From: an uncultured Alphaproteobacteria bacterium
Lineage (GTDB): Bacteria > Bacteroidota > Ignavibacteria > OLB7
Length of the DNA stretch: 64,000 bases
NCBI GenBank assembly: GCA_964462535.1
Contig: CAYWXV010000012.1
Span: 16,601-80,600, forward strand
Direction of reading: 5' to 3'
Shown: positions 4,847-56,409 of the stretch, in pieces
How positions within the stretch are numbered: the first letter of the stretch is position 1
How the letters are laid out: each line of letters starts with the position of its first letter
The notes under the pieces: model-generated
The model's input: only the letters and a program-made list of their open reading frames with translations
What the model was told of the DNA's origin: nothing
Databases searched by the model: none
Made by a program: the position numbers and the translations under genes

Positions 4847-5140
4847 CTATTCCAGCACCTTTGGGACGCTGAAGAATCCTTCAGTCTTCTTCGGTGCGTT
4901 CTGAAGCGCTTCAGCGGGCGTGAGGAGGGGACCCGGCTCGTCGTCTCGGAGGATATTGGTCGTCCCATGCACGAACTCCATGGGCTGAACATCCGTGACG
5001 TCGACCTGTTTCAACTGCTCGATGTATTCAACGATCTGGTTGAACTGCTGGGTAAACCCTGAGAGTTCGGTTTCCGAGAATCTGAGACGTGCCAGGCGCG
5101 CGACGTGGGCGACCTGTTCCGGTGTGATTGTGGTAGCCAT
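4847..5140 (-). CDS. gatC: Asp-tRNA(Asn)/Glu-tRNA(Gln) amidotransferase subunit C
   Basis: 97 aa from ATG 5140: ITPEQVAHVARLARL...LRDDE...ALQNAP...FFSVPKVLE. The upstream extension in the ORF track is non-coding. Confidence 0.95.
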   Translation of the reverse strand: MATTITPEQVAHVARLARLRFSETELSGFTQQFNQIVEYIEQLKQVDVTDVQPMEFVHGTTNILRDDEPGPLLTPAEALQNAPKKTEGFFSVPKVLE

Positions 5141-5201
5141 GAGCGGAATATACGATTGGGACCATCTATGCGATGAGCAACGGGTGCCGTCAAAAAAGGG
5201 C

Positions 5202-5278
5202 AAAAAAAAGCCGCGCAACTCACCCCTGATCGCGCGGCTAGGGTGAAGCGCCGAGGGTTGGTGCCCCAGCAACTTCAC
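5202..5278 (-). ncRNA. Putative small RNA copy 1 (two hairpins, the second an intrinsic terminator)
   Basis: UGAAG-UU-GCUGGGG[CACCAAC]CCUCGGC-G-CUUCA, linker CCCU, then AGCCGCGC..UCAGGGGUGA..GCGCGGCU followed by a U-tract. The 5' end is inferred. Confidence 0.7.
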
Positions 5279-5282
5279 ACTA

Positions 5283-5311
5283 CATACCAGCCCAACACCG
5301 AATTGGTTCCC
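5283..5311 (-). promoter_or_regulatory. Putative ECF-sigma promoter of sRNA copy 1
   Basis: GGGAACC-aattcggtgttgggct(16 nt)-GGTATG. Confidence 0.65.
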
Positions 5312-5391
5312 ATTCAGTGCACATTCGTTCGAATCGCAGTTTTCTCGCTGGAATTGGCGTTCCCGTTCTGGTGTGGTCGTTCTGGAAGGGC

Positions 5392-5471
5392 AAAAAAAGT
5401 GAGCTGCGCAACTCACCCCTGATCGCGCAGCTCGGGTTGAAGGCCAAGGGTTGGTGCCTCAGCAACTTCAC
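5392..5471 (-). ncRNA. Putative small RNA copy 2
   Basis: UGAAG-UU-GCUGAGG[CACCAAC]CCUUGGC-CUUCA, linker ACCC, then GAGCUGCGC..UCAGGGGUGA..GCGCAGCUC followed by ACU7. Confidence 0.7.
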
Positions 5472-5475
5472 ACTA

Positions 5476-5504
5476 CATACCAGCCGAAATGCAGATTGGT
5501 TCCC
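5476..5504 (-). promoter_or_regulatory. Putative ECF-sigma promoter of sRNA copy 2
   Basis: GGGAACC-aatctgcatttcggct(16 nt)-GGTATG. Confidence 0.65.
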
Positions 5505-5582
5505 ATTCACGAGCAACTGTTTGCAAATGGTTGAAAACTAAGCAGAATCGCATGTTCTTGGTTCGCGTGCGGTGGCACGGGC

Positions 5583-5662
5583 AAAAAAAATGAGCTGCGC
5601 AACTCACCCCTGATCGCGCAGCTCGGGTTGAAGGCCAAGGGTTGGTGCCTCAGCGGCTTCAC
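5583..5662 (-). ncRNA. Putative small RNA copy 3
   Basis: Same as copy 2 except UU->CC in the 5' arm bulge and the terminator tail (AU8). Confidence 0.7.
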
Positions 5663-5666
5663 AAGA

Positions 5667-5695
5667 CATACCAGGCGAGCCCGAGAATAGTTCCC
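5667..5695 (-). promoter_or_regulatory. Putative ECF-sigma promoter of sRNA copy 3
   Basis: GGGAACT-attctcgggctcgcct(16 nt)-GGTATG. Confidence 0.65.
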
Positions 5696-5769
5696 AATTG
5701 TCAGGTTTTTTCTCCGGGCGTCAGAATCTGCCAGAAATCGGCCGAATAATCCTGAACGAAGCTGCGTCG

Positions 5770-6759: not shown

Positions 6760-6945
6760 TGTCTCGTGTATCGGTTCTGATTTTCATCACTGATAGAGAG
6801 CGGTAGAGACGCTGTTGCGTAACTTCCCGCCGCTTTTTGAAGATCGAAGGCCGCATCACAGCCAGGTTGGGTCCGCCACCTTCGATTCCCCTTCCATTTG
6901 ATCGAGTAATCCCGGCGGTACGCGGGATTATTCCAGTTGCACTGC

Positions 6946-8025
6946 ATGAAGTGGCTAATCGGTTTGGTAATTCTGGCGGCGCTTGCCATCGCCGGAATCT
7001 GGATATCGGGCGTCTTCAGGACTATTTCGGTCGTCGTCGCTCCACCTGAGCGACGCGAAGCGGTCAGGGTTATTTCGGTCCTCGGCTCGGTTCGGGCAGA
7101 ACAGATTGCACGCATCCGTACGGAGGTAGGCGGGGAGGTTGTCGGGCTCTTTGTGCGGCAGGGGGAAGAGGTTCGGGACGGCGAGCCCGTGATGGATCTC
7201 AAGGTCGAGGAGCAGAAGAGTGCCGTCGTCGAAACCCAGGCGCGTCTGCGCGAGGCCCAGGTAACCGTCCAGGAGCGAAAGTTGAATCTCGACAGGGAAA
7301 CCGAGCTCCTTGCACAGGGGGCCTCAACGCAGCAGGCGGTGGACGACGCGCGCGCGGCCTACAATCGAGCCGTTGCGGCGGCCAATTCCGTTCGCGCAAT
7401 TCTCAGCAGCCGTAAGTCCGTTACAGGCAAAGGGAAGATCGTTGCGCCAATCTCCGGCGTCGTCACCCAGGTCAACGTCAACGTTGGCGACATCGTCCCA
7501 CCAAACGTCGAGGCCATAACGATCTTGGATCCCGCCTCCTTCCGGGTGGTGGCTGATGTAGACGAGCTCGACATAACACGCATTCGTCCGGGACAGGAGG
7601 CGATCGTCTCGTTTGATGCGATGCCGAAGAGCAGATATCGAGCCCGTGTCGACAGGATAATTCCGCAGGCGGACGAAGTGACCAAAACGCTCCCCGTTAT
7701 TCTCCGGCTTACCGATGGCGTCTTGAACCTTTCCGAAGGGTTGACAGCGAACATCAACATTGTTCAGGAACGCCATCCGAACGCGCTGACGATCCCGCGC
7801 CGGGCGATACTGGATGAGCGAGGTAACAAGGCACGTCTGTTCGTTCTGACGGAAAGAAATACCCTGCAGCTCGATACCGTTGTCCTCGGCGTTCGCGGTG
7901 ATGACTACGTAGAGATTCTGGACGGCCTGAACGAGGAGGCTCGCGTCGTTCTCGATCCCGATCCGCTTTGGAAGGGGGGTGAGGAAGTGGAGGTGGACCG
8001 TAAGGCAACAGCCAGACGGCAATAG
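6946..8025 (+). CDS. Efflux RND/MacA-type periplasmic adaptor subunit
   Basis: N-terminal anchor, V.G.V..L.V.QG..V lipoyl motif, coiled-coil hairpin, APISGVVT..NVNVG, and IP..AI. Confidence 0.9.
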   Translation: MKWLIGLVILAALAIAGIWISGVFRTISVVVAPPERREAVRVISVLGSVRAEQIARIRTEVGGEVVGLFVRQGEEVRDGEPVMDLKVEEQKSAVVETQARLREAQVTVQERKLNLDRETELLAQGASTQQAVDDARAAYNRAVAAANSVRAILSSRKSVTGKGKIVAPISGVVTQVNVNVGDIVPPNVEAITILDPASFRVVADVDELDITRIRPGQEAIVSFDAMPKSRYRARVDRIIPQADEVTKTLPVILRLTDGVLNLSEGLTANINIVQERHPNALTIPRRAILDERGNKARLFVLTERNTLQLDTVVLGVRGDDYVEILDGLNEEARVVLDPDPLWKGGEEVEVDRKATARRQ

Positions 8026-8052
8026 AGCAATCATCGATCCACGATAGTCCTG

Positions 8053-9309
8053 ATGTCATCCGCTAAATCCGTGCATGCCGACAGATTCTCCCGGGGCTTT
8101 CGGGTCGGTCTGGTCTGTGCGGCGCTCACACTTGCGATAGTCGCCGCGGCTATCGGCGTGTTGGTGGATGTGTCATTCATCCAGGATCCCGCCCTCCGCG
8201 AGATCCTGGCGAGCAATACACCACACGTGTACGTCGGTTCAGTCCCGCTCAAGCCTCGCACCCGAAGGACACTGCTGTCAGTCGGTGACCGGACCGTGCT
8301 CGAGGTCGTGAAAAACGTTCCACCCTCCACCCGTCCGGAGCTGAAACCGTTCGTTGAGCTTGTTGCCCGTCTTGAAGGGATAGATCCGCAGATTACCACA
8401 GTATCCCCACGCGTTCAGCTGAGAGGCTTCTGCCGAAACGGCACTCGTTGTCGTCCCGTGACGGTCATGGGAATCCTCCCACGCAAGGAAGCGAAGTTTC
8501 TCCACGCCGGGGCCGCTGTGAACGACGAGAGTTTCGATGCTCTTGAGCGCACTCCCATGGGAATCGTCCTCAGCTCTGTCGTCGCCAACCATTTAGGTGT
8601 GGAGGTTGGATCGCGTGTTTCTCTCATCACAGCCACCGGCGCCGTTCGACAATTCGTGGTCGTGGGGGTCTTTGCAGCGCATTCCTCCGGCGGAGATTCG
8701 TTGACCACATACATCAATCTCGGGGGTGCGCAGTCGCTTCTTGGTCTGCAGCGGAATGCTGTGAGTGGAGTGGCCATCCGATTGGCCGACGCCGGACGGG
8801 CCGAGCGTGTCCGTGATCGGGTCGAACAGACTATCGGGTATAGTGCTGCGACCTGGGGCGAGGCGAACGCGCAACAGATCGAGTTCCAGTTCAAAGAGCG
8901 TTGGTTGATGTGGGTGGTAGTGGTACTGGCTCTCATCGTCGCTGTCGCCGGTGTGCGCGATGCGCTTTCCGCGCGTCACATCTCCGGACGTCTTTCCGGA
9001 CCCACACGCGCGGAGAAGAGAACGGCGAGTCTAGCGCTCGGTGGGCTCGTCGGGCTGGCAGCAGGAAGTATCGCATGTGTACTGTTCATTGGCCTCCCCA
9101 GAGTACTCGACCTTCGTCGCCTCCTCCCTGTCCACTACAACCCGCTTGACAGCACGGTTGCAACGATACCGGTTGAACCACATGTCGTTCCGGTTGTGGT
9201 TCTGTTCGCAGTTTCCATCCTCTCGGGTGTCATTGGCGGCGGGTTGTCTTCGCGATCGGTTGAGCAGCTTGCGCGCCCGTCGACGCAATTGGTTGGGGAG
9301 GAGACGTGA
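8053..9309 (+). CDS. MacB/LolE-like (FtsX) permease, divergent
   Basis: N-terminal TM, large periplasmic domain (GIVLSSVVANHLGVEVG, VVGVF) and three C-terminal TMs. Confidence 0.7.
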   Translation: MSSAKSVHADRFSRGFRVGLVCAALTLAIVAAAIGVLVDVSFIQDPALREILASNTPHVYVGSVPLKPRTRRTLLSVGDRTVLEVVKNVPPSTRPELKPFVELVARLEGIDPQITTVSPRVQLRGFCRNGTRCRPVTVMGILPRKEAKFLHAGAAVNDESFDALERTPMGIVLSSVVANHLGVEVGSRVSLITATGAVRQFVVVGVFAAHSSGGDSLTTYINLGGAQSLLGLQRNAVSGVAIRLADAGRAERVRDRVEQTIGYSAATWGEANAQQIEFQFKERWLMWVVVVLALIVAVAGVRDALSARHISGRLSGPTRAEKRTASLALGGLVGLAAGSIACVLFIGLPRVLDLRRLLPVHYNPLDSTVATIPVEPHVVPVVVLFAVSILSGVIGGGLSSRSVEQLARPSTQLVGEET

Positions 9310-10565
9310 AGGTGTTCGCTGAGGTCTGGAGAGGGCTACGGCCGCAGAGAGGTCGCGCCGTTGTTGTCATGTGTGGCATGGCGTTCGGCGTCTCAGCCGC
9401 CATAGTCATGCTCTCCTTCTTCGCCGGACTCTTCGCCGCAAACGAGGCGCGAATTCTGAGTGGCGACCCGCATATTGTTGTGACTCAGCGCCAGGTCGGG
9501 GGCGCACCTGCGGATCTTCTGATTGACGAGAATGACGAAGTCGTTGAGTTGAAGCGATCGTTCCTGGGTGAAGGCGAAGGGAGAATGAGGAACGCGGTGT
9601 CAACGATGCGGATGATCGAACGTGACCTTCGTAACGAGGTCTCCGCCGTCAGTCCCTTCCTGGAAACACACTCGCTGGCGGTCTATGGGGTCAACGAGGT
9701 ACCGTTGGTGGTCAGGGGAGTCCTTCCCGCACGAGAGGTTGAATTGTCTCAGCTCGGCAGGCACTTGGAGGAAGGGGTAATCGGACGGTTTGCGAATTAT
9801 CGAAACGGGATTCTGCTTGGTTACCGCGCCGCCGCACGCTTGGACGTTCATGCCAACGATCGAATTCGCCTTGTGGCTCTCGATGGAACGCTCATCCCGG
9901 TCCAAATCGCCGGAGTCTACCGTTTCGACATCCCCGCCCGTGATGAAGGTTGTCTCGTCAATCTTCGACTGGCGTCGTCGGTTGCGGGAACGTTGCCCGG
10001 TGAGGCAAACGGCATCGCAGTAAAGACGGCGGACCCGGAGAGGTGCGATGAGGTTGCCCGCATGCTTGAACGCTTGACGGGGTTAGGTACGGTCACGTGG
10101 GAGGAGGCGCACGCCGATTCCTTGTCAGTCTTTAGCTTCGTGCGTTTTCTGGCACTCGCCATTCCGTTGCTCCTGATAGCTCTGACGGCGCTGGCCCTTG
10201 GCCGGCTGCTCACGATTGCTTGGATCAAACCTGTGATGCCCGTTGATTTGGATAGCGCGCGAGACGTCGGAACGACGCGATCGTCGTTGATGCGCGGGCT
10301 TGTGCTTTCAATGCTGCCCGCCTCGGTGGGTGTAGTTGCCGGTGTTGTGGCCATTCTGGTGGTGAGTCCTGCCCCGCTACTGCTCTGGCTCCTCCCCAAT
10401 CCGTTCGATATCTCCGCGGTACCGATGAGCTTGCACCCCTGGTACATTCTGGGCTCGTTTGCGCTTGCGTGTATTGGGACGGGGCTTGCATCAGCGCAAT
10501 ACGCGCGAACCTTCGGGTTGCCCAGGTCTTCGCCACGTATGCAGCTGGATCCCGCGGACGCATAG
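9306..10565 (+). CDS. MacB/LolE-like (FtsX) permease, second, divergent
   Basis: GMAFGVSAAIVMLSFFAG, GILLGYRAAARL and QIAGVY motifs; start overlaps the previous stop (GTGA). Confidence 0.7.
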   Translation: MKVFAEVWRGLRPQRGRAVVVMCGMAFGVSAAIVMLSFFAGLFAANEARILSGDPHIVVTQRQVGGAPADLLIDENDEVVELKRSFLGEGEGRMRNAVSTMRMIERDLRNEVSAVSPFLETHSLAVYGVNEVPLVVRGVLPAREVELSQLGRHLEEGVIGRFANYRNGILLGYRAAARLDVHANDRIRLVALDGTLIPVQIAGVYRFDIPARDEGCLVNLRLASSVAGTLPGEANGIAVKTADPERCDEVARMLERLTGLGTVTWEEAHADSLSVFSFVRFLALAIPLLLIALTALALGRLLTIAWIKPVMPVDLDSARDVGTTRSSLMRGLVLSMLPASVGVVAGVVAILVVSPAPLLLWLLPNPFDISAVPMSLHPWYILGSFALACIGTGLASAQYARTFGLPRSSPRMQLDPADA

Positions 10566-10638
10566 TCTGGTTCCACTCGTACCTTCGTGCCTCCCGTCCT
10601 CGAAACCTGCTCAATAGATTTTGACACGCCTCCGCATC

Positions 10639-11961
10639 ATGCGACTGCTTCTCATACCTCTTCTTCTGCTGCTGGCCGCAACCGGAGACCTGCGCGCGCA
10701 GGTAAGAAGCGTCAATCTGCCGGATGCGGTGCGTATGGCCGAGGAGGAGAGTCTCGAGATCAAACGGTTGAGCCTCGCGGTCCAGAGGGCCGCGACGGGT
10801 GTGGAGAGCCTGCGTGAAGAATATGGACCCGAGGTGTTCGTGGAGGGCGAGTACAGGCTGACCCCGCAACCAGACATTCTCTTCACGAACCCGGACGTGG
10901 CGTTTAACACGACTGGTGAGATGGACGCACTTGTTACGGGCGGTCATCACGTAACCGGGGCCACAATTGCTGCGAGACTGCCGTTGTACGATCCGCGACG
11001 TCGGTTGCGACTGCGGGTCGCAGAGTCTGGCGTATCAGTGGCGCAGGCGGAATTGGATGTTGCGCGCGCCTCGTCGCGAAGAAACGTCGAGCGCCTGTTT
11101 TACCGTGCTCTTTATGCGCGGTACGAAAAGAAGACCAGGGAAGATCAGATCAATCAGGCCGTCACGAATCTGGAGTTCACTCTGGCCCGATTCAGGCAAG
11201 GGAGAGCTCTCCCGCTGGATACGGTAACTGCTGCGACCACTCTGGCCCGGGCCAGAGCAAGCGCCAGTCGTGCTGGTCTGTCGTACCAGGCCGCGCTCAT
11301 TCAGTTGGCTCGACGGATAGGGATTCGGGACGTGAACAATCTCGAGCTGGATGGATCGCTTGACCTTCCGAGCGCTCCGGGTCCGAGCGGCGGTGACATG
11401 ACGGTCGTACCAGGTATCCTGAACTCTGCGGAATTACAGTTGGCGCAGCAACGACTCGCTGCCTCACGCGTTGCCGTGGATGCTGAACAACGATCGATTG
11501 GCCCAACAATCGATCTGGTTGGGCGTGCTCGAGCACGGGGGGAAAGCGCCGACTACACTCCCGATCAGTGGGCATGGGGAATGACCTCCTTTGTTGGATT
11601 TGTCGCCCGCCTGAACCTGACGGAATTGTGGCGGGGCGATCCGGTGAGGGAGGGAGCGGAACTTCGCGTGCGCGAGAATCAACTCTCGATTGACGATATC
11701 CGCCGCGAAGACAGTATCGCCGTCGAAACTCTGCTGTTCGAAATGCAGGCAGCGCGGACCCAGATCGAGGCGGAAGAGGCGACGGTCGAACAATCGACGA
11801 GGGCTATCGAGATCACCACGATTCTCTATCGTGAGGGGAGAGCGACGTGGCTCGACGTCGAGACTGCCCAGAATCGGTTGTTGGAGACGGAACTCGCTTT
11901 GGAGAGGCTCAAGCTCCGCTTCCTTGAGAGCTATGCCGAGCTCAAAGCCATCGGCGGGTAA
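10639..11961 (+). CDS. TolC family outer-membrane efflux protein
   Basis: Signal peptide, repeated helical domains, RFRQGRA...D and YREGRATWLDVETAQNRL. Confidence 0.85.
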   Translation: MRLLLIPLLLLLAATGDLRAQVRSVNLPDAVRMAEEESLEIKRLSLAVQRAATGVESLREEYGPEVFVEGEYRLTPQPDILFTNPDVAFNTTGEMDALVTGGHHVTGATIAARLPLYDPRRRLRLRVAESGVSVAQAELDVARASSRRNVERLFYRALYARYEKKTREDQINQAVTNLEFTLARFRQGRALPLDTVTAATTLARARASASRAGLSYQAALIQLARRIGIRDVNNLELDGSLDLPSAPGPSGGDMTVVPGILNSAELQLAQQRLAASRVAVDAEQRSIGPTIDLVGRARARGESADYTPDQWAWGMTSFVGFVARLNLTELWRGDPVREGAELRVRENQLSIDDIRREDSIAVETLLFEMQAARTQIEAEEATVEQSTRAIEITTILYREGRATWLDVETAQNRLLETELALERLKLRFLESYAELKAIGG

Positions 11962-16976: not shown

Positions 16977-17159
16977 GTACGTCGTACCTGCTCGTATTCG
17001 GTAGTAGGTCGGAACTGTTCCTTGACGTTCCATGGGCCGCTCGTCGATATTCCATAGAGCCAGTCCTTCATTTGCATTCCCCTACTGCTCACACCAGCCC
17101 AACCGTAACTTGCCTGCGACTCCGGTGTCCCTGGCTGGTCGCCCCGTCCCTCTGTGTAC

Positions 17160-17720
17160 ATGCCCCTGCACTACGATCGACATACCGACGAAGAACTCTT
17201 CCGCCTTCTGAGTGATGGCGACAAAGATGCGTTCGTGGAGCTCTACGGCCGATATCGGTCCCGTATCTATGCCTACGTCCTCAGAATGCTTGGGGATCGC
17301 GACCGAGCAAACGATGCGTTTCAAGAGACATTCGTCCGGATATACAACTCAGCGCGTGAATCCGGACGGATCGTTGCCAACGTCTCAGCCTACTTCTTCA
17401 CATCCGCGAGGAACGTCTGCCTGAACGCGCTCCGCGATGCGAAACCGACCACCCCGGTCGAAGACTACCATGAGATCGTATTTCAACCTAGCCACGAGAA
17501 CCTGGAGCTGGCTGAACTGGTGAAGCGATCTCTCGAACTCCTTCCTGAACATCTCCGTGAGGCATTTGTACTTCGCGAGTACGACGGGCTGAGCTATCAG
17601 GAAATTTCTGACGTCACCGGACAGGGACTGTCCGCCGTCAAAGTGCACATCTTCAGGGCGAAGGAACGTTTGCGGAAAATACTGACGCCCTATCTGGAGG
17701 AGGCCCGTCCATCGCGGTAG
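17160..17720 (+). CDS. ECF sigma-70 family RNA polymerase sigma factor
   Basis: DKDAFVELYGRY, DAFQETF, YFFTSARNVCLN and REAFVLREYDGLSYQEIS...VKVHIFRAKERLR. Confidence 0.93.
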   Translation: MPLHYDRHTDEELFRLLSDGDKDAFVELYGRYRSRIYAYVLRMLGDRDRANDAFQETFVRIYNSARESGRIVANVSAYFFTSARNVCLNALRDAKPTTPVEDYHEIVFQPSHENLELAELVKRSLELLPEHLREAFVLREYDGLSYQEISDVTGQGLSAVKVHIFRAKERLRKILTPYLEEARPSR

Positions 17721-17773: not shown

Positions 17774-19093
17774 ATGAAGCAGAACGAACTCATACTAGAA
17801 TACCTGGACGGCACACTCGATCCGGCTGCCGAACAGGAACTCTTCGAGACCCTGGCCGGGCAACCTGAACTCCGCACGACACTTCGCGGTTTTGTGCAGA
17901 TAGGGGACGCCGTCCGTGGCGATCGCGAAGCTTTCACGCCGCCGGCAGCGGTGGAGGCTTCGTTGATGCGACGTTTGGGGCTCGCCGCGGTGCCCGGTAA
18001 CTCCACGCGTGGAGCCGGCCTGCTCGCGTTCTTCCGGACCAGGGCATTCGGTCTGGCGGCTGCCTTCCTGCTCGGAGCGCTGTTGACGGCCGGCATCTAC
18101 CGTGTTGCCGTTAGATCCGACATCGCCCAAACCGGGCCGGTAGTCAAGACCACCGGGAGTGACACGCCACGTCGGGCCATCGAGTCTGCACTGAAATCGC
18201 CGAGCACTGTCCCCGCATCCGGCGCGAGCACGATTTCCAGCGAGCAGCAGGTTCCCAAGTCGTCTGCGAACAGTTCCGAGGTGCCGCCGCTTTCTGCGCC
18301 TCAGTCCGCTTCGATTAGTGGAGAGAATCGTTCAACAACAGCGACGACAGTTGTGAATCGCGTCCCCAGGGTGCGAACCACACCCAGCTTGCCGGTAGTT
18401 GCTTTGCAGAATGATGTGGACCAGAACGGCCCACCGCCGCGAAGAGCGTCGCGGGACATTATGAGAAGCTTGTATGGCGATGACTCTGAGCACCTGTTGA
18501 CAACCCGAAACGGCCGACCGCCCGACATCGTCGACCGGTCGACGACCTATCCGCGACTGAATTCGGCGGCCACGCTCGGGATCGATCTCTCTGTCCCCGA
18601 TGAGACGACGCGCGGCGACTGGATCGTTGAACTCCGCCATGGATTTGCTTCCACGGACCTGGAGACTGTGGAGGCGCTCAACCCCTCGACGTCCTGGGTA
18701 GAGGACGGGGCATTGGGGGTCTATCGTCATGTCGGATCCAACGTCGCACTCGGTGTCGAGCTTGGAGCCGAGCGCTACTCGCAGCGAATTCCCCATGTGG
18801 CTGCGGACACAGTCGCGATAGATCAGCGTCCCCTGTACACCTGGGGGGGTGCGGCAGTGAGGTATTTCCCAGGCAGAGTCATTGGACTGGACCCCATGTT
18901 CCAGGGAGGTTTCGGTATCGCTTCGGCCGGGCCCGTGGTGAGAGGCCGATTTGGCCTTTCGCGCGACATTCTATCGGGCTTCAAGGTTGCCCTGGGAGTG
19001 GAGTCGTCCGCACTCATGTATAAGGCGGGCGACGTGCGACAAATCAGCGGGCGGTGGGGGGGATTCGCAGGGCTGGAGGTCATGGTACCATGA
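17774..19093 (+). CDS. Putative dual-membrane-spanning anti-sigma factor (anti-sigma N-terminus, TM, S/P/T-rich linker, C-terminal beta-barrel)
   Basis: LILEYLDGTLD..EQELF (anti-sigma-like start), one TM (AFGLAAAFLLGALLTAGIY), ~170 aa low-complexity linker, and ~160 aa of alternating beta-strands; lies directly after the ECF sigma. Confidence 0.65.
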   Translation: MKQNELILEYLDGTLDPAAEQELFETLAGQPELRTTLRGFVQIGDAVRGDREAFTPPAAVEASLMRRLGLAAVPGNSTRGAGLLAFFRTRAFGLAAAFLLGALLTAGIYRVAVRSDIAQTGPVVKTTGSDTPRRAIESALKSPSTVPASGASTISSEQQVPKSSANSSEVPPLSAPQSASISGENRSTTATTVVNRVPRVRTTPSLPVVALQNDVDQNGPPPRRASRDIMRSLYGDDSEHLLTTRNGRPPDIVDRSTTYPRLNSAATLGIDLSVPDETTRGDWIVELRHGFASTDLETVEALNPSTSWVEDGALGVYRHVGSNVALGVELGAERYSQRIPHVAADTVAIDQRPLYTWGGAAVRYFPGRVIGLDPMFQGGFGIASAGPVVRGRFGLSRDILSGFKVALGVESSALMYKAGDVRQISGRWGGFAGLEVMVP

Positions 19094-21238: not shown

Positions 21239-21895
21239 ATGGCCCAACTCTTCAAACCGATATCCAACATCCTTGCTCGGTTGAGCATCGTCGGCGGCGG
21301 ACTCCTGGCATTCGGCGGACTTTTTCTGCTCAACCAGGCCTTCCGCTCGGACTTCGTAACGCTTGCCGACGTCGTCCGGGAACAGCCGGTTCCTTTCAGT
21401 CATGAGCACCACGTTCGTGGGCTTGGGATTGACTGCCGCTACTGTCACACGTCGGTGGAGTTCTCCAGCGTGGCGGGTATTCCCCCCACGGAGACCTGCA
21501 TGAGTTGTCATTCGCAGATCTGGACGAATGCCGCAATTCTTGAGCCGGTGCGATCGAGCTTCAAGACCGGGCAGCCGCTTCGATGGAATCGGGTGCACGA
21601 TCTTCCCGATTTCGTCTACTTCAACCACAGCATCCACATCAACAAGGGCATTGGCTGCGAAAGCTGTCATGGTCGTGTCGATCAGATGCCGTTGATGAGA
21701 GCGGGAAGTCCGCTGCAAATGGCTTGGTGTCTGGACTGTCATCGCGATCCCGCCAAGAATATCCGTCCGAAGGATCAGGTTTTCACGATGGGCTACAAGC
21801 CAGCGGAGAGCCAGGCAACGCTTGGACCGAAGCTGGTCAAGGAATACAACGTCAACGTCAGGCAGCTCACGAACTGTTCGATTTGCCATCGCTAA
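21239..21895 (+). CDS. actA: Alternative complex III pentaheme cytochrome c subunit
   Basis: Five CxxCH motifs (CRYCH, CMSCH, CESCH, CLDCH, CSICH), QPVPFSHEHH and LPDFVYFNHSIH. Confidence 0.93.
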   Translation: MAQLFKPISNILARLSIVGGGLLAFGGLFLLNQAFRSDFVTLADVVREQPVPFSHEHHVRGLGIDCRYCHTSVEFSSVAGIPPTETCMSCHSQIWTNAAILEPVRSSFKTGQPLRWNRVHDLPDFVYFNHSIHINKGIGCESCHGRVDQMPLMRAGSPLQMAWCLDCHRDPAKNIRPKDQVFTMGYKPAESQATLGPKLVKEYNVNVRQLTNCSICHR

Positions 21896-24800
21896 TGACG
21901 AACGAGATACACCTTAGCAACGGCGCCGCGCCGCCGGAAGAAGGAAGGATGGGTGAAGGGTTGGACGCCGCAAACGGGGAACTTCGAATCCTGACGGAGA
22001 GCGAGTCCCCCGTTGTCTATCAAGACCCCGCATTCGACATCGAAGCGCTTCGACAAAAGGTTGCCGAACGCTCCGGTCGCGAGTACTGGAGGGGGCTTGA
22101 TGAGCTTGCGGAGACGCCGGAGTTCCAGGCGCTTCTGGAGAAGGAATTCCCCGATGGCGCCGCTGAATGGAACGACCCCGTAGGGAGACGTCACTTCATG
22201 AAACTCATGGGTGCGTCGGTCATGCTTGCCGGTATCGGCGCATGCACGCGTCAGCCCGAAGAAAAGATTCTTCCCTATGTAAAGGCGCCCGAGCAGTTCA
22301 TTCCGGGACGGCCGATATACTTCGCAACGGCGATGCCTCTTGCCGGATACGGCACAGGATTGCTTATCGAGAGCCACACCGGGCGCCCCACGAAAGTGGA
22401 GGGGAACCCCGACCACCCTGCGAGTCTTGGAGCAACGGACTCGTTTGCCCAGGCCTCTGTCCTCCAGCTGTACGACCCGGATCGATCGCAGACCATCCGG
22501 AACAAGGGGACGTTCTCAACCTGGGAGAAGTTCACGGCGGCCGTTAGTGATATGGTCAGCACGTGGAAGAGCAATGGTGGGGAAGGACTCCGCATAGTAA
22601 CCGAGACCGTTTCGTCGCCGACGATGGCCGGTCAGATGAACACGCTGCTGGCAAAGTATCCGAACGCGAAGTGGATCCAGTATGACCCGGTCTCGCGTGA
22701 CAACGTCCGTGACGGGGCAAAGCTCGCGTTTGGGGAGTATGTAGAGACAACCTACCGGTTTGGCAGCGCGGAGGTCGTCCTCTCCATCGATTCGGATTTC
22801 CTGCTGCAGATGCCGGGGAGCGTCCGCTACGCCCGCGACTTCGTGGCGAAGCGGAAGGTGACTAACGGTTCGACCACCATGAACCGCCTTTACGCGCTCG
22901 AGTGCTCGCCCACGATTACCGGTGCGAACGCGGATCACCGCAAGGGACTGAAGCCCTCTGCGTTGGAGGGCGTCTTCTGGAGAATTGCCGCTGATCTTGG
23001 AGTCTCCACGCCCGCGGGGGCGACGCCTGCCCAGGGGGACAAGTGGACCGAGGCCGTTGTTCGCGATCTGAAGAAGAACAGCGGGAAGTCGATTGTCGTA
23101 CCTGGCGACCATATGTCGCCGGCCATTCATGCGGCCTGTCACGCAATCAACGCTGCTCTCATGAACGCAGGAACAACCGTCGTCTATACGGCGCCGGTTG
23201 AAGCGGCACCGCAAAATCAAATGGCGGCCCTGAAGGACCTTGCTGCGGAGATGGCGGCAAAGAAGGTTTCGACGCTTGTCGTCATTGGAGCCAATCCTGT
23301 CTTCACTGCCCCGGCCGACTTGAAGTTCGGAGACGCGATCCGAAACGTGCCGAACGTGATTCATATGGGACTCTATGCCGACGAGACGGCATACTTCGCA
23401 CAGTGGCACATTCCGGCGCTTCACTACCTGGAGGATTGGAGTGACGTCCGTGCGTTCGACGGCACGGTGTCGATCGTGCAGCCGTTGATCGCGCCGATGT
23501 ACTATGGCCACTCGGCTCATGAGCTTCTCGCAACGATGATCGCGCAGTCGGGCGGACCGACATCTGCGTACGACATCGTCCGTGCGTCATTCCAGGGTCC
23601 GGGAGCGAAGGCTGCTCCCGCAGTTGCCGACACTGCGGCAGCCGCGCCAGCACCCGCAGCGCCAGCACCGGCTGCTACTCCTGCGCCTGCCGCAACTCCT
23701 GCCGCCGCTCCGGGAGCACCTGCGCCGGGAGCACCCGCCCCGGTCGCCGCGCCTGCTGCGGGAATGGAAGCCGCATGGGCGAACGCCCTGCATGACGGTG
23801 TCGTTGAAGGGACGGCCCTCCCAGCGCTCAGCCCCACGTTGGACGCGACCTGGTCATCACGCGCTCAGATCGCGAAGGTTGATGGGAGTGGGATGGAGCT
23901 TGTCCTGCGCGCCGACACGACGATCTATGATGGTCGGTTCGCCAACCTGGGATGGCTCCAGGAACTGCCGAAGTCGATGACCCTCCTCACATGGGAGAAC
24001 GCGCTCCTTCTTGCTCCTTCGGACGCCGAGCGGCAGGGGCTGGGGAATGGCGATGTGGTCAAGGTGACAATGGGTGGCGGTTCGGTAGATGTACCTATCT
24101 GGATCACTCCTGGACAGCCAGCCGGAAGCTGCACGCTCAACTTTGGCTACGGACGCGTTCATGGCGGCCGCGTAGCCAATGGGACGGGGGTGAACGCCTA
24201 CGTTCTGCGCACGACGGCTGCCCCGTGGTGCGGCGTGGCAACAGTTGCGCCGACGGGTGACCACATTCCCCTGGCCACGACGCAGACGCATCACAGCATG
24301 GAAGGGCGTGATATCGTCCGTGGCGGAACAATCGACGATTACGTCAAGAGCCCGACGAAGGTCAACAAGCCGGCCGGTGTCGGTACACATGCCGAACCGG
24401 ACGCGAAGCCGCCCGAACTGGAGGACTCGTTCTACCCCGACTGGCCCTATGAAGAGGCCGCTTGGGGTATGACGATCGATCTGACGTCGTGCATCGGCTG
24501 CAACGCGTGTATGATCGCGTGCCAGTCGGAGAACAACATTGCCGTGGTCGGCAAGGAACAGGTGTTGAAGCATCGCGAGATGCACTGGATCCGCGTAGAC
24601 CGCTACTACTCTGGCGATCTGGATCAGCCACATTCTGACTTCCAGCCGGTTCCATGCATGCAGTGTGAGAACGCTCCGTGCGAGCCGGTCTGCCCTGTTG
24701 GAGCAACCGTGCATGGTGATGAGGGGCTGAACGACATGGTTTACAACCGCTGCGTCGGCACTCGGTACTGCTCGAACAACTGTCCCTACAAGGTTCGTCG

Positions 24801-25169
24801 CTTCAACTATCTCCTCTTCAGCGATCTGGAAACGGAGTCGTTGAAACTTGGACGCAACCCGGATGTGACCGTTCGAAGCCGCGGTGTGATGGAGAAGTGC
24901 ACCTATTGCGTTCAGCGTATCAATCACGCCAGAATCGAGGCCAAGAAGGACGGACGCGATGTCGCCGATGGCGAGATCGTCACCGCCTGCCAGCAGGTCT
25001 GTCCCACCGAGGCCATCGCCTTCGGCAATATCAATGACCCGAAGAGCCAGGTGGCTGCGATGAAGAAGCATCCGCTGAACTACAGTCTCCTTGCCGATCT
25101 GAACACGCGTCCCAGGACGACCTATCTGGCGCGGCTCCGTAATCCGAATCCCGAACTGGAGGGTGTTGC

Positions 25170-25173
<4 letters not shown>
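21895..25173 (+). CDS. actB: Alternative complex III subunit B (molybdopterin-oxidoreductase-like domain plus 4Fe-4S domain)
   Basis: [10 protein letters not shown], Tat [10 protein letters not shown] with lipobox [45 protein letters not shown] and CTYCVQRI; start overlaps the actA stop (TAATG). Confidence 0.93.
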
Positions 25174-26561
<1,388 letters not shown>

Positions 26562-26582
26562 GAGACCGCAGAGGATCAACAC

Positions 26583-27134
26583 ATGTCGTACACAACAGCC
26601 GACGCTCCTGCGATCTACGGAATGATGGCGGAGTTCGAGACTCCCGAGGCTCTCGTGGCCGCGGCGAAGAAAACGGAGCAGGCCGGGTATACGGTCTACG
26701 ATGCATACACGCCATTTCCCGTTGAAGAACTGGAGGACGCTGTCCCCCGTTCGGGCCCCTATGTCGGGCTGCTTGTTCTGATCGGTGGGCTCAGTGGCGT
26801 TCTTCTTGGCTTTCTGATGGAGGCCTACCTTGCGGGGGAGTATTACCCCATCAATGTGGGTGGGCGACCACTCCTCAGCTGGCCTGCATTCATCCCCGTG
26901 GCCTACGAGTGCGGGATTCTACTGGCATCGTTCAGCGCCGTCTTTGGTATGCTGGGTCTGAACGGATTCCCGATGCCATATCATCCGGTCTTTAACATCG
27001 AGCAGTTCGAGCGGGCCTCGCTCGACCGGTTCTTCCTGACGATTGAGTCGGCCGATCCAAAATTCGATCAGGCGGACACAACCCAGTTCCTCCAGGGACT
27101 GGGAGCTGCATCGGTCGTGCAGGTACCTGCCTAG
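26583..27134 (+). CDS. actD: Alternative complex III subunit D (DUF3341)
   Basis: DAYTPFPVEEL, YPINVGGRPLLSWPAFIPVAYE and DRFFLTIE. Confidence 0.93.
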   Translation: MSYTTADAPAIYGMMAEFETPEALVAAAKKTEQAGYTVYDAYTPFPVEELEDAVPRSGPYVGLLVLIGGLSGVLLGFLMEAYLAGEYYPINVGGRPLLSWPAFIPVAYECGILLASFSAVFGMLGLNGFPMPYHPVFNIEQFERASLDRFFLTIESADPKFDQADTTQFLQGLGAASVVQVPA

Positions 27135-27229
27135 GGAACTGGAGTCGATCCAAATGGAACGACCCCGGAAATGGATCGATTGACACAGGCAAATCCAACA
27201 GCAACCCGACAACACAGGACACCCAGTCC

Positions 27230-27856
27230 ATGTCATTGTTCGCATTCATACATCGTCGAAGCCGGATCGCAGCAGGGATGGCTCTTGCCGCCGTTGCGAT
27301 TTCCGTCGGTGGTTGTCGACTTGAGATGTACGACCAGCCGAAGGTGCGAGGGTATCGCGCCAGCAACTTCTTTGCTGACAGCCAGGGTGTACGACCGCAG
27401 GTGGAGGGGACTGTTGCGCGAGAGAGTGCGTGGCCGACTCGCTTCAAGCCGACCGCCGGGTTCGATGCCAACATGCGCTCGAAGCCAGGCGTCGCCGCGA
27501 TTCCAGCCGATAGCTCAAATCCATATGCACTGACGAAAGAGTTTCTTGTTCGCGGACACGAGCGCTTCAACATCTACTGCTCCCCGTGCCACGGGCGTCT
27601 TGGGGATGGTCAGGGGATGATTGTGAAGCGTGGTATGCCGACGCCGCCAACGTATCACTCCGAGCGCCTCCGGACCGTCAAGGATGCCTACATCTATGAC
27701 GTCATCACGAACGGATTCGGCCGGATGTACGGTTACGCATCGAGGATCTCGTCGGAAGATCGCTGGGCAATTATCGCCTACGTCCGCACGTTGCAGTTCA
27801 GCCAGAACGCTCCGAAGGAGTACATGGCCGAGTCTACCGGAACCACTTCGAAGTAA
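27230..27856 (+). CDS. actE: Alternative complex III monoheme cytochrome c lipoprotein
   Basis: Lipobox VGGC, EMYDQPK, CSPCHG, and YDVITNGFGRM..YA..I..EDRWAI..YVR. Confidence 0.92.
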   Translation: MSLFAFIHRRSRIAAGMALAAVAISVGGCRLEMYDQPKVRGYRASNFFADSQGVRPQVEGTVARESAWPTRFKPTAGFDANMRSKPGVAAIPADSSNPYALTKEFLVRGHERFNIYCSPCHGRLGDGQGMIVKRGMPTPPTYHSERLRTVKDAYIYDVITNGFGRMYGYASRISSEDRWAIIAYVRTLQFSQNAPKEYMAESTGTTSK

Positions 27857-27860
27857 CGTG

Positions 27861-29072
27861 ATGAATCAGATCGCTACGAACAACACGCGCCTTGAAGGGC
27901 TCCGCAAACGGTCGTTGATCGCCGGGGGAGTCGGACTGATCCTTCTTGCCGTTGGTCTGGGACTCGGTGTCTCGGGCGACGAGGAGATGCTGACCCAGTT
28001 CTTCCGCTCGTACCTCTACGGCTACGTCTTCTGGCTGGGACTCCCCCTTGGCGCTCTGGGCATCCTCCTTCTGCACAACCTTGTAGGTGGTCCCTGGGGA
28101 TACGTTACACGTCGCGTCCTTCAGGCCGCGGTGAAGACCCTGCCGGTCATGGCGATCCTCTTCATTCCGATTGTCTTCGGAATGCATCACCTCTACGAAT
28201 GGACGCACGAGGCCGTCGTGGCCGCCGATCCGATTCTTCGTCATAAGGCCCCCTACCTGAATCAGAATGGATTCATCATGCGGGCGGCGATTTACTTCGT
28301 GATCTTCCTTCTCTTCGGGTTGAGCATCGTGAGAACGATGCAGAAACTCGAGGATCTGGGGGGGTCGGTGGTGACGCGACGTCTCCAGTCAGTCAGCGCA
28401 ATCGGGATCATCCTGATCTTCCTGGCAGGCACGTTTGCTGCGTTTGATTGGATGATGTCGCTGGAGCCCCATTGGTTCTCCACAGCCTACGGCCTTCTCT
28501 ACATGATTGGTGGCGGGTTGATGGCCTTCGCCTTCCTGATTGTCATGATGCGTCACCTGGGTGGGGTCGACACGGAGGTCGATTCAGCACTTCGTCCCGG
28601 CTACATGCATGATCTTGGAAACTTCATGTTTGCGTTCATGCTGTTGTGGGCCTATGTGTCCGTGTCGCAGTTCATCATTATCTGGGCCGGTAATCTTCCG
28701 GAAGAGACTCCGTGGTACCTCCATCGAACGGTCGGTGCATGGAAGTACTTCCCGATCGTCCTTGCCGTATTCCATTTCGCTGCACCGTTCGGACTCCTTC
28801 TTTCTCGCAAAGTGAAGCGGGACCGCGGCACACTTGCCCGCGTGGCAATTCTGATCATGATCATGCACGCGATCGATCTGTTCTGGTGGATCGCACCGTC
28901 GTTCCAGCATGGCGACGGCGGCGGGTTCCATGTCTCGTGGATGGACGTCGCAGCGTTGCTTGGCATTGGTGGAATCTGGCTGGCAATCTTTGCCGGCATC
29001 CTCGGTAAGGGGACTCTTCTCCCGGTGAACGTGGCCTATCCGAAGCAGGAAGTGGAGCATCAGCATGTCTAG
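27861..29072 (+). CDS. actF: Alternative complex III subunit F
   Basis: Polytopic membrane protein with LYEWTH, FDWMMSLEPHWFST, HDLGNFMFAF, SQFIIIWAGNLPEE and DLFWWIAP. Confidence 0.92.
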   Translation: MNQIATNNTRLEGLRKRSLIAGGVGLILLAVGLGLGVSGDEEMLTQFFRSYLYGYVFWLGLPLGALGILLLHNLVGGPWGYVTRRVLQAAVKTLPVMAILFIPIVFGMHHLYEWTHEAVVAADPILRHKAPYLNQNGFIMRAAIYFVIFLLFGLSIVRTMQKLEDLGGSVVTRRLQSVSAIGIILIFLAGTFAAFDWMMSLEPHWFSTAYGLLYMIGGGLMAFAFLIVMMRHLGGVDTEVDSALRPGYMHDLGNFMFAFMLLWAYVSVSQFIIIWAGNLPEETPWYLHRTVGAWKYFPIVLAVFHFAAPFGLLLSRKVKRDRGTLARVAILIMIMHAIDLFWWIAPSFQHGDGGGFHVSWMDVAALLGIGGIWLAIFAGILGKGTLLPVNVAYPKQEVEHQHV

Positions 29073-29571
29073 TCACAACGAACCGAACGATCCCAATCTG
29101 CACGAGAACTGGGATCACGAGCACGAGCGGCGCGACGTCAACGCGAAGTCGATCAACCGTTCGATGATCTATCTTCTGGTCGTCGTCCTTGGCTCGGCCT
29201 TCTTCGTAGTCTGGCTGTTCAATCAGTACGAGGGGATGGCGGAGAAGCGGGACGTGGCACGACCGCCAGTCGCCGACAGTCTGGAGATGCCTCCGTTTCC
29301 ACGTCTTCAGGCGAATCCTATGAAGAATCTTGCCGAGTTCCGCTCCCACGAGGATTCGGTGCTGAACAGCTACGGCGTGGCCGATAGCGGAATTGGTGCG
29401 GTACGTATTCCGATCGACCGGGCTATTGAAATAGTTGCAAGCCAGGGGAAGGTGCCGGCTATGCCGATGCCTCCTCCATCTGCCACTGCACCTCATGACA
29501 CGACGGTGAATGCACAGGGTACGACCAATGAAAACGGACAGAGCGCCACGCAGCAAGCGGGAGGCGCATAG
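29065..29571 (+). CDS. Single-TM protein, probable ActG-like subunit
   Basis: HERRDVN + TM + PPFPRLQANP...L.SYG.AD...VRIPIDRAIE; sits at the ActG position. Confidence 0.6.
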   Translation: MSSHNEPNDPNLHENWDHEHERRDVNAKSINRSMIYLLVVVLGSAFFVVWLFNQYEGMAEKRDVARPPVADSLEMPPFPRLQANPMKNLAEFRSHEDSVLNSYGVADSGIGAVRIPIDRAIEIVASQGKVPAMPMPPPSATAPHDTTVNAQGTTNENGQSATQQAGGA

Positions 29572-30376
29572 ACGGTTCGCCATTGCGGCGCTGATCGGGC
29601 TGGTTGCGTATGCGATGCCGGCAACGGCGCAGAATTCAGGTCCCGATCTTCAGAACGATGTAAGTATTGATCAGAACCTTGACGCTCAGATCCCACTCGA
29701 TCTGACGTTCAAGGACGAGGCCGGAAGGAGCGTCGCGCTTGGCGAGTATATGCGCGACAAACCGACGATCCTGGTTCTGGCCTACTACGAATGTCCGAAC
29801 CTCTGCACGCAGGTGCTGAACGGACTGGTCAAAGGGCTGCGTCCCGTCTCCTTCTCCGCCGGCGATGAATTCGATGTTGTCGTCGTCAGCATCAACCCGC
29901 GTGAGACGCCACAGCTGGCGGGGGAGAAGAAGGTTTCATACCTCCAATCGTACAAACGGGAGGGGGCGGAACAGGGGTGGCATTTCCTGGTGGGGGAGCA
30001 AAGCTCGATTGACATCCTTGCGCAGACGACCGGATTCCGGTATGTCTACGACCCCCGATCGAAGCAGTATGCGCATGGCGCGGCGATTATGATCGTTACG
30101 CCACAGGGGAGGATCTCCAAGTATTTCATGGGGATCGAATTCGCTCCGCGCGATCTGAAGCTCGGGTTGATGGAGGCCTCGCGGGAGAGGATCGGCAATC
30201 TTGCCGATCAGGTCCTGGTCCTCTGCTTCCAGTACGACCCTTCAACCGGCTCGTACAGCTTCATGACATTGCGGGCGATCCAGGCGGGTGGACTTCTGAC
30301 GCTGCTGGTCTTTGGTGTCTTCGTGATTCGTTCGATGCGACGAGACAAACGGAATCAACAACAGAACGAACGATAG
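29528..30376 (+). CDS. SCO family copper chaperone
   Basis: YYECPNLCTQVL (CxxxC), WHFL.G, YAHGAA and LCFQYDP. Confidence 0.9.
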   Translation: MKTDRAPRSKREAHRRFAIAALIGLVAYAMPATAQNSGPDLQNDVSIDQNLDAQIPLDLTFKDEAGRSVALGEYMRDKPTILVLAYYECPNLCTQVLNGLVKGLRPVSFSAGDEFDVVVVSINPRETPQLAGEKKVSYLQSYKREGAEQGWHFLVGEQSSIDILAQTTGFRYVYDPRSKQYAHGAAIMIVTPQGRISKYFMGIEFAPRDLKLGLMEASRERIGNLADQVLVLCFQYDPSTGSYSFMTLRAIQAGGLLTLLVFGVFVIRSMRRDKRNQQQNER

Positions 30377-30381
30377 CAGGT

Positions 30382-31311
30382 ATGTGGGACTTTCCCTTGA
30401 TGCCCGAGGCGGCCTCGACGGTAGCAGGTACCGTTGACGGCCTCTACTATTTCATCTCCGGGGTAACAGCCTTCTTCACACTCTTGATCGCCGGCCTTGT
30501 GGCCTTCTTTGCGATCAAGTACCGTCGTGGGGCAAAGGTCGACCGGACAAATCCAATCGCACCATCGATGGTGCTGGAGTCGATCTGGATCGGTGTTCCC
30601 CTGGTGATTGTAATGGTGATCTTTTTCTGGGGAGCCAAGGGGTTCTTCGATATCGAGCGTCCCCCAAAGCACGTGCAGGATATCTACTGTGTCGGCAAGC
30701 AGTGGATGTGGAAGTTCCAGCATACGAACGGCATGCGCGAGCTGAACGAGATCCACGTTCCGGTCGGTCAGGCATTCCGCGTGACGATGACATCGCAGGA
30801 CGTTCTCCACGACCTCTACATACCCGCCTTCCGTGTCAAACAGGACGTCCTCCCGGGAAAGGTGACACAGATCTGGTTTGAGGCGACGAAGACAGGCAAG
30901 TTCCATCTCTTCTGCGCCGAGTACTGCGGCACGCTCCACTCGGGAATGATCGGCACGGTTACAGTCATGGAGCCGGACGAGTATCAGCAGTGGCTTAGCG
31001 GTGGCGCAGGGAACGAGTCGATGGCATCACTTGGTGAGAAGGTCTTCAACCAGCAGGGTTGCATAACCTGCCACACAAAGCAGGGGAATCGCTGCCCAAC
31101 GCTGGATGGCCTGTATGGCAAGGAAGTTCGTCTCCGGGACGGGGGCACCGTCATCGCCGATGAAAACTACATCCTGGAGTCGATCCGCCAGCCGACGGCC
31201 AAGGTCGTAGCAGGATATCAGTCGATCATGCCGACGTTTCAGGGTCGAGTGACCGAGGAGGAGATGCTGCAGCTGGTGGCCTACATCAAGTCGCTCGGCG
31301 CTGCGAAATAG
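30382..31311 (+). CDS. coxB: Cytochrome c oxidase subunit II with C-terminal cytochrome c (caa3 type)
   Basis: QWMWKF, DVLHD, CuA motif CAEYCGTLHSGM, and heme c motif CITCH...MP. Confidence 0.95.
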   Translation: MWDFPLMPEAASTVAGTVDGLYYFISGVTAFFTLLIAGLVAFFAIKYRRGAKVDRTNPIAPSMVLESIWIGVPLVIVMVIFFWGAKGFFDIERPPKHVQDIYCVGKQWMWKFQHTNGMRELNEIHVPVGQAFRVTMTSQDVLHDLYIPAFRVKQDVLPGKVTQIWFEATKTGKFHLFCAEYCGTLHSGMIGTVTVMEPDEYQQWLSGGAGNESMASLGEKVFNQQGCITCHTKQGNRCPTLDGLYGKEVRLRDGGTVIADENYILESIRQPTAKVVAGYQSIMPTFQGRVTEEEMLQLVAYIKSLGAAK

Positions 31312-31399
31312 GAGCTGGGGGTTGCGCCGACCGGGCGGCGGGGATTGACGACACGCGGTTTGACAGGAAGAACAAAAGACACGCATACGGAATAGAGTA

Positions 31400-42490: not shown

Positions 42491-42521
42491 ACCCCCGGGG
42501 AACCTGTGAGGAGTGCGGGGT

Positions 42522-54700: not shown

Positions 54701-56409
<1,709 letters not shown>

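Follow-up and report, generated by a model that had tools for sequence, protein, structure and literature searches.

We analysed a 64-kb stretch of contig CAYWXV010000012.1 (hereafter the window), in which the minus strand carries an array of small RNA (sRNA) genes, flanked by msrP (6759-5770, Oxidored_molyb) and gatC (5140-4850). Downstream of gatC are kdsB and then an aminotransferase-GNAT gene. Each sRNA gene is preceded by two short boxes, GGGAAC and GGTAT, with a gap of constant length between them, and the pair probably represents a promoter of the type used by sigma factors with extracytoplasmic function (ECF). The best MsrP homologues showed 64-80% identity and, where named, belonged to Candidatus Kapabacteria/Kapaibacterium. 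The host is a relative of Candidatus Kapabacteria in the FCB group (Bacteroidota/Chlorobi group), in agreement with the initial annotation of this DNA, which had placed it in the FCB group.

A direct-repeat search revealed three tandem units of 118 nt at 5696-5579, 5505-5388 and 5312-5195, all on the minus strand, with a unit spacing of 193 and 191 nt. Every unit shows the same layout: TGGGAAC, 17 variable bases, GGTATG, 7 nt, and then an RNA of about 79 nt. In copy A, the -35-like box GGGAAC is located at 5690-5695 (preceded by a T at 5696), the spacer TATTCTCGGGCTCGCCT, variable in sequence and fixed in length at 17 nt, at 5673-5689, and the -10-like box GGTAT at 5668-5672 (GGTATG reaching to 5667); the sRNA itself of about 79 nt occupies 5582-5660, with a predicted start at about 5663-5660. 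Copy B contains GGGAAC at 5499-5504, the 17-nt spacer CAATCTGCATTTCGGCT at 5482-5498, GGTAT at 5477-5481 and the sRNA at 5391-5469, and in copy C the corresponding features are located at 5306-5311, 5289-5305 (17-nt spacer CAATTCGGTGTTGGGCT), 5284-5288 and 5198-5276. A covariance model of the RNA matched copies A, B and C with 99.2, 97.8 and 82.6 bits, respectively; copy C is the most diverged and carries compensatory changes in both stems. An A-tract, AGAAAAAA, is located 10 nt upstream of the -35-like box of copy A (5706-5713) and could be a UP-like element.

Through a search for GGAACY-N16-GGTATG, in which up to one mismatch was tolerated and 0.30 chance matches were expected, we found exactly three matches in the window, all on the minus strand (5694-5667, 5503-5476 and 5310-5283) and all with zero mismatches. 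The fixed-spacing two-box motif that the initial annotation had described before every sRNA copy is thus present as claimed. The three matches are not independent because they are copies of one tandem direct repeat, and the raw count is therefore not an informative statistic. More informative is the three-way alignment, in which the units become similar exactly from (A/T)TGGGAAC onward and cannot be aligned further upstream. Both boxes are 100% identical across the three copies. The 17-nt gap differs at 6-9 of its 17 positions among them, against 3 of 79 positions between the RNA bodies of copies A and B (Fisher p = 2e-5), and high conservation resumes 7 nt after GGTAT and lasts to the T-run. 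The 16-nt spacers had been quoted correctly in the initial annotation when read on the minus strand; they differ in sequence and are equal in length, and their predicted folds differ between copies, which bears out the statement that they hold no conserved hairpin.

The transcribed part folds into two stem-loops. The first (SL1) is composed of GAAG-(2 nt)-GCUGAGG, the loop CACCAAC and CCUUGGC-CUUC. After a short linker follows the second (SL2), in which a stem of 11 bp carries the loop UCAGGGGUGAG of 11 nt and is followed by a tail of U7-8, which in copy A is U8; having stem, loop and U tail, SL2 is therefore an intrinsic terminator. In the structure alignment with the homologues described below, standard pairs were found in 94.8% of cells, and 11 of the 22 pairs showed changes on both sides. 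None of 500 shuffles reached the observed score, and slid controls were only 30-49% paired. The loop cores GCACCAA (SL1) and GGGGUGA (terminator loop) are invariant in this alignment. The sRNA body is a real structured RNA. Within the 64 kb, the covariance model matches only the three copies. Rfam gave no match at gathering thresholds across the whole window, with noise only at permissive thresholds, and the best sub-threshold match on the sRNA scored 15.6 bits against a threshold of 50. The sRNA represents a new, previously undescribed family with a promoter of known kind, and is plausibly driven by an ECF sigma factor.

The order msrP-spacer-gatC-kdsB-aminotransferase is kept in all contigs fetched, and the sRNA is present in the msrP-gatC spacer of 10 of the 12 lineages compared. 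Its copy number by lineage is one, three or six: single copies were found in L015, L017, L020, L023, L025, L026, L027 and L028, three in the window, and six tandem copies in L029/L030, an NCBI metagenome-assembled genome (MAG) of Candidatus Kapabacteria (L029:5032-5872, plus strand; L030 the same). In L029 the copies follow one another every 144-147 nt and fall into two subtypes, arranged a-b-b-a-b-a; each copy carries GGGAAC-N17-(G/A)GTAT. In L021 (5190-5236) and L024 (5125-5179, both plus strand), which contain no sRNA, a hairpin with an SL2-like stem (GAAGCxG...CxGCUUC), a different loop and a T-run was observed; this is the msrP terminator or else what is left of the terminator of the sRNA. 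The covariance model gave weak matches in these two lineages, which we rejected as sRNA, as they cover the SL2 stem only and both conserved loops are absent.

A look-up of identical GatC proteins returned the same species only, and in most cases the contig ends within the repeat. Of nine contigs fetched, six begin at one point in the repeat, 289 nt upstream of gatC. Two Logan contigs of the same species (L006:397-760 and L012:280-643) contain only two sRNA copies, the first of which is hybrid, with the promoter of copy A and the 3' end of copy B; this two-copy version may result from assembly collapse or from real copy-number variation. A scan of GTDB genomes and JGI metagenomes with the pattern CACCAACCC-N15-35-GATCAGGGGTGAG gave chance matches in coding sequence only and is uninformative on the distribution, because true homologues differ from this pattern by one or two bases (for example GGTCAGGGGTGAG in L017 and L020, CACCAACTC in L015) and the pattern is too strict.

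The syntenic msrP-gatC spacer provided 15 promoter copies from eight lineages (the window, L015, L017, L020, L023, L027, L028 and L029). Their upstream consensus is (A/T)T-GGGAAC-N17-(G/A)GTAT, in which GGGAAC and GTAT are invariant in all 15 copies. The gap is likewise 17 nt in 15 of 15, no other spacing being found, with a mean spacer identity between lineages of only 42%. The SL1 stem starts 7-9 nt after GTAT. The base following (G/A)GTAT is T, G, A or C, and the hexamer GGTATG occurs only in the window and L017. An A/T tract is present 10-12 nt upstream of GGGAAC in most lineages; in the window it is clear only for copy A, and it recurs in L017, L020, L023, L027 and L028, and also in L025/L026. 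From its position, we infer that this tract may serve as an UP element. In the window copies (about 5740-5727, 5547-5535 and 5354-5342, minus strand) and the three closest lineages, L015, L017 and L020, a semi-conserved sequence, GATTyCTGnnARA, precedes GGGAAC by about 32-45 nt and is a candidate binding site for a regulator.

The strongest evidence on the nature of the boxes comes from L025 and L026. Both carry a homologous RNA, which scores 88.6 and 87.9 bits, respectively, and share the A-tract upstream; neither contains GGGAAC or GGTAT. At the positions of the boxes they have TTGACG or GTGACG, N19 and TATATTTG, with the SL1 stem 4 nt further. The length from A-tract to RNA is almost the same in both arrangements, 48 nt in L028 against 47 nt in L026. 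The Bacteroidetes/Chlorobi RpoD motif is TTG-N17-23-TAnnTTTG (bioRxiv 10.1101/172254) and the -7 box of the Bacteroidota primary sigma factor is TAnnTTTG (PMC7366714), so that the L025/L026 sequence matches a promoter of the Bacteroidota/Chlorobi primary-sigma type. Since the same RNA is found behind a primary-type promoter at the same position, the RNA should start downstream of the boxes, and the GGGAAC/GTAT pair would be promoter and not transcript, a role that we regard as very likely. The two promoter classes occur without intermediates among 17 copies, so GGGAAC/GTAT is a discrete alternative to the housekeeping state. This contrast with the housekeeping promoter is drawn from the orthologous loci L025 and L026, and not from TAnnTTTG in the window, which the initial annotation had taken as the housekeeping box there: that box is weakly represented, with six matches in 64 kb, only three of them non-coding.

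Through comparison with published consensus sequences, we found that the sRNA promoters best fit the ECF (group 4 sigma-70) type, and we estimate the probability of this assignment at roughly 65%. GGGAAC contains the AAC core of the ECF -35 element in all 15 copies, and the free-sequence gap of 17 nt, again in 15 of 15, agrees with the rigid spacer of about 16-18 nt that characterizes ECF promoters. In the -10 box (G/A)GTAT the GT is invariant; GGT fits [CG]GTT at three of four positions, but it is followed by AT and not by T/C, and there is a likeness to the SigB-type GGGTAT too. Similar consensus sequences have been described for Mycobacterium tuberculosis SigH ([CG]GGAAC-N17-[CG]GTT[CG]) and SigE (GG[AG][AC]C-N18-[CG]GTTg) and for Streptomyces coelicolor SigR (GGAAT-N18-GTT), and in Chlorobaculum tepidum, which belongs to this phylum group, 182 mapped start sites carry a similar ECF-like motif (bioRxiv 10.1101/172254). 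In Corynebacterium glutamicum, the -35 element of sigmaC is GGGAACT and sigmaH recognizes GGAAt / GTTgaa (PMC5483222), and S. coelicolor SigE promoters are defined by AAC and TC. Thus the ECF-type promoter proposed by the initial annotation fits in promoter behaviour, sequence and geometry, but its -10 box GGTATG is not family-wide and has to be relaxed to (G/A)GTAT.

Several points weigh against an ECF promoter. GGTAT is not the commonest ECF -10 element, which is CGTC, CGTT or TC, and it also resembles the GGGTAT -10 element of SigB/SigF-type group 3 sigma factors. The transcription start is placed by geometry only. The initial annotation had suggested a motif scan to define a regulon; regular-expression and weight-matrix scans of the window and of 161 kb in total (window plus relatives) found no site beyond the sRNA promoters (22-31 bits, against at most 12 bits for all else), and hence the motif upstream of no other gene. 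In addition, no ECF sigma gene was found with the sRNA motif upstream, and TAnnTTTG is rare in the window, so that the housekeeping consensus of this host is not established from the window itself.

The window contains only one ECF sigma gene (17154-17720, plus strand), which is followed by a gene for a membrane anti-sigma factor (17774-19093, plus strand) and which the initial annotation had considered as a possible driver of the sRNAs; the genome's other ECF sigma genes are located outside the window. Upstream of it we found CGTAACTT-N12-GGTGTCCC (17104-17132, plus strand), also present in L026 (1527-1499, minus strand) before an orthologue with 69% identity, the spacers having otherwise diverged. 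GGGAAC-N17-GGTAT is absent upstream of the gene. The conserved motif, whose two boxes and spacing are unlike those of the sRNA promoters, is probably the sigma gene's own autoregulatory promoter of ECF type. In L026 the ECF sigma gene is only 2.5 kb from msrP, yet the sRNA promoter there is primary-type. Given the different upstream motif and the L026 arrangement, this sigma factor is unlikely to drive the sRNAs and is probably not the cognate sigma factor of their promoters. The anti-sigma protein of 439 aa has no Pfam match; its N-terminal anti-sigma helix and single transmembrane segment are joined by a long linker rich in Ser/Thr/Pro to a C-terminal region with an alternating beta-strand-like pattern. 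It may be an envelope-spanning anti-sigma factor like Reo, the partner of EcfO in Bacteroidales (PMC13114119).

Two further genes of this kind bear on the alternatives. One (44156-45019, minus strand) encodes a 287-aa RpoD-like sigma-70 factor with regions 1.2, 2, 3 and 4 and without region 1.1, probably the primary sigma factor; the other (54701-55036, plus strand), between secF and purA, encodes a stand-alone STAS-domain anti-sigma-factor antagonist, which implies a partner-switching module somewhere in the genome. In the main rival explanation, the boxes form a promoter used by an alternative sigma factor outside the ECF group, for example a group 3 SigB/SigF-like one under partner switching. 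The -10 element of Bacillus SigB and mycobacterial SigF promoters is GGGTAT, and the sRNA promoters come close to it with TGGTAT, GGGTAT or GAGTAT; the STAS-domain antagonist in the window would suit such a system. The -35 box points the other way, as GGGAAC is the classic ECF AAC box and not GTTT or GGTTT, and the gap of 17 nt exceeds the 12-15 nt typical of SigB-type promoters. Moreover, no group 3 sigma gene was seen in the window, where the RpoD-like gene is the only non-ECF sigma gene, and we give this explanation a small chance. It is rather unlikely, too, that the boxes are an unusual variant of the Kapabacteria primary-sigma promoter in which TAT starts the -10/-7 element and the sRNAs are constitutive. 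In the MAFFT alignment, the TAT of GGTAT does fall on the one within TATATTTG of L025 and L026, at equal distance from the RNA, and TTGGGAAC on TTGACGAA, and the upstream A-tract is common to both promoter classes. But the classes are discrete, 15 copies having invariant GGGAAC and GTAT and two having TGACG and TATATTTG; GGGAAC fits neither TTG/TTTG nor TTGACA, and there is neither TTTG nor a conserved final T after TAT. The window reads TATGTCTT or TATGTAGT after GG, and the sixth-position T of a TATAAT-like hexamer occurs in only one of eight lineages. An extended -10 element was rejected because TGn is not conserved, the TG missing in three lineages. A sigma-54 promoter (TGGCAC-N5-TTGCW, with GG and GC at a distance of 10 nt) was rejected as well: the nearest TTGC after TGGTAT is 18 nt from its GG and is not conserved (copy A has GCCGC).

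The boxes might also not be contacted by a sigma factor at all, but be transcription-factor sites (two half-sites that contain TGG, at a distance of 23 bp) or lie within a longer transcript that is processed to the RNA of about 80 nt. Both boxes start with (T)GG at a fixed separation, and GATTyCTGnnARA upstream makes additional regulators plausible. This explanation is improbable when set against the precise -35/-10 distance from the RNA, the lack of anything else promoter-like conserved nearby, and the joint loss of both boxes in L025 and L026, which gain a complete primary-type promoter at the same position; in addition, what the covariance model aligns is confined to the body downstream of the boxes, and pairing is not conserved in the spacer. 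RNA-guided transcription by dCas12f-sigmaE has been described in Bacteroidetes and needs no promoter motifs (PMC13472631); the 17-nt segment would then be the guide target and the flanking boxes incidental. A genome of the Bacteroidota group that encodes an ECF sigma factor and has, at a fixed distance from a start site, a variable segment about as long as a guide would be compatible with this mechanism. We rejected it as extremely improbable because the neighbour of the ECF sigma gene (17774-19093) encodes a membrane anti-sigma factor and not a Cas12f-like protein; the two boxes are invariant here, though the mechanism needs none, and no matching guide was seen.

An ECF-type promoter remains the best fit, and under it each tandem unit would be an independent transcription unit. 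In the core promoter, the -35 element (A/T)TGGGAAC and the -10 element (G/A)GTAT would be separated by a spacer that is free in sequence and rigid in its length of 17 nt, and in many lineages the A/T tract 10-12 nt upstream of the -35 element may act as an UP element. Some ECF sigma holoenzyme would start transcription about 6-8 nt past the -10 box, at the foot of SL1, and the product would be an sRNA of about 80 nt ending at its own intrinsic terminator. The invariant loops GCACCAAC (SL1) and GGGGUGA (terminator) are candidate seed or protein-binding sites, and tandem amplification to three or six copies would raise the output. A search for 7-mer complementarity of these two loops near the 48 gene starts of the window gave nothing convincing. 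Considering the likeness to MicA/RybB/MicL and FoxI/FoxJ and the envelope-related neighbours (msrP, a MacAB-TolC-like efflux operon and kdsB), we might speculate that the sRNA is the arm of a stress response.

The arrays may hold a further layer of control. Between copies 4 (5465-) and 6 (5756-) of L029, the RNAs show no difference (0/78) and the 36 nt of upstream flank hardly any (2/36), yet the spacers differ at 9 of 17 positions and the discriminators at 3 of 8 (12/25 against 2/114 in flank plus RNA; Fisher p = 6e-9). Most simply, selection or homogenisation through gene conversion acts on all but the spacer; more interestingly, the spacers themselves could be selected to differ. Spacer sequence modulates ECF promoter selectivity according to Gaballa et al. 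2018, as cited in PMC6767563. The divergence of these two copies, concentrated in spacer and discriminator, hints that the arrays integrate signals, spacer and discriminator tuning each copy to a different ECF sigma factor or strength so that the sRNA collects several envelope-stress inputs; we offer this as a long shot.

As for the neighbouring genes, the 3' end of sRNA copy C is about 55 nt upstream of the gatC ATG (5140). TATATT was found only 6-8 nt before this ATG (5147-5152, minus strand) and at the equivalent positions in L015 and L017, which suggests that the gatC mRNA is leaderless or has a very short leader and starts from a primary-type -7 box. The longest-ORF call at 4847-5416 was rejected as an artefact that runs through sRNA copy C into copy B. 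The MacAB-TolC-like efflux operon (6937-11961, plus strand) is divergent from msrP. Farther away, the window contains alternative-complex-III-like and cytochrome c oxidase genes (21583-33779, plus strand) and a gene for a 1585-aa TamB-like protein (37790-42547, minus strand).

Genomes of the Bacteroidota group encode on average 22.5 ECF sigma factors (PMC7826278), and Proteobacteria and Fusobacteriota are the only groups with established sigmaE-dependent sRNAs (PMC11005410). In the literature searched, we found no sRNA output of Bacteroidota-group ECF sigma factors, and few of their promoters are known. If the sigma dependence is true, a third major group of bacteria would be added to those with a non-coding arm of the ECF response and, even without the refinement of spacer tuning, this would be the first such arm in the FCB group. 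The conserved and recognisable promoter-plus-sRNA module of these uncultured Kapabacteria offers a defined motif for the search of ECF regulons in complete MAGs. It is also a natural experiment, in which sister lineages have placed one sRNA under either an ECF-type or a primary-type promoter, and an example of dosage evolution through tandem amplification.

The closest functional parallels are the sigmaE-dependent sRNAs MicA, RybB and MicL of E. coli/Salmonella, VrrA and MicV of Vibrio, and FoxI and FoxJ of Fusobacterium nucleatum (PMC11005410), which are likewise short sRNAs with their own ECF-type promoter and an intrinsic terminator, with boxes conserved together with the RNA and several sRNAs per response. 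Such sRNAs respond to envelope or oxidative stress through the sigma factor, pair by a conserved seed with mRNAs for abundant envelope proteins, and feed back on the sigma factor. The C-rich unpaired stretch of the window sRNA is a candidate seed, and FoxJ uses a cytosine stretch (PMC11005410). Unlike here, the promoter in MicA/FoxI-type systems matches that of the sigma gene itself, a match that the window ECF sigma gene does not show. These sRNAs belong to another phylum group and have no sequence or Rfam relationship to the window sRNA.

At the promoter level, the motifs of SigH/SigE, SigR, sigmaH/sigmaC and the Chlorobaculum tepidum ECF sites share with the window a GGGAAC/GGAAC -35 element and a gap of 17-18 nt and resemble it in a -10 element starting with (C/G)GT, and, as here, they stand apart from the phylum group's own primary-sigma motif. 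The published ECF -10 element, a consensus from other organisms, continues with TT or TC, whereas that of the window continues with AT. The Bacteroidota/Chlorobi primary-sigma promoter, with TTG/TTTG near -33 and TAnnTTTG near -7, is carried by the sRNA genes of L025 and L026; the window and seven other lineages lack the TTTG and the -33 TTG and belong to another class.

In architecture, the array recalls Listeria LhrC1-5 and the pneumococcal csRNAs, which are near-identical tandem sRNA genes, each with its own regulator-specific promoter and terminator, and with conserved C-rich loops. Those sRNAs are driven by two-component response regulators in Firmicutes, no ECF sigma factor taking part in their control, and they show no sequence similarity to the window sRNAs; the tandem architecture is alike in both.

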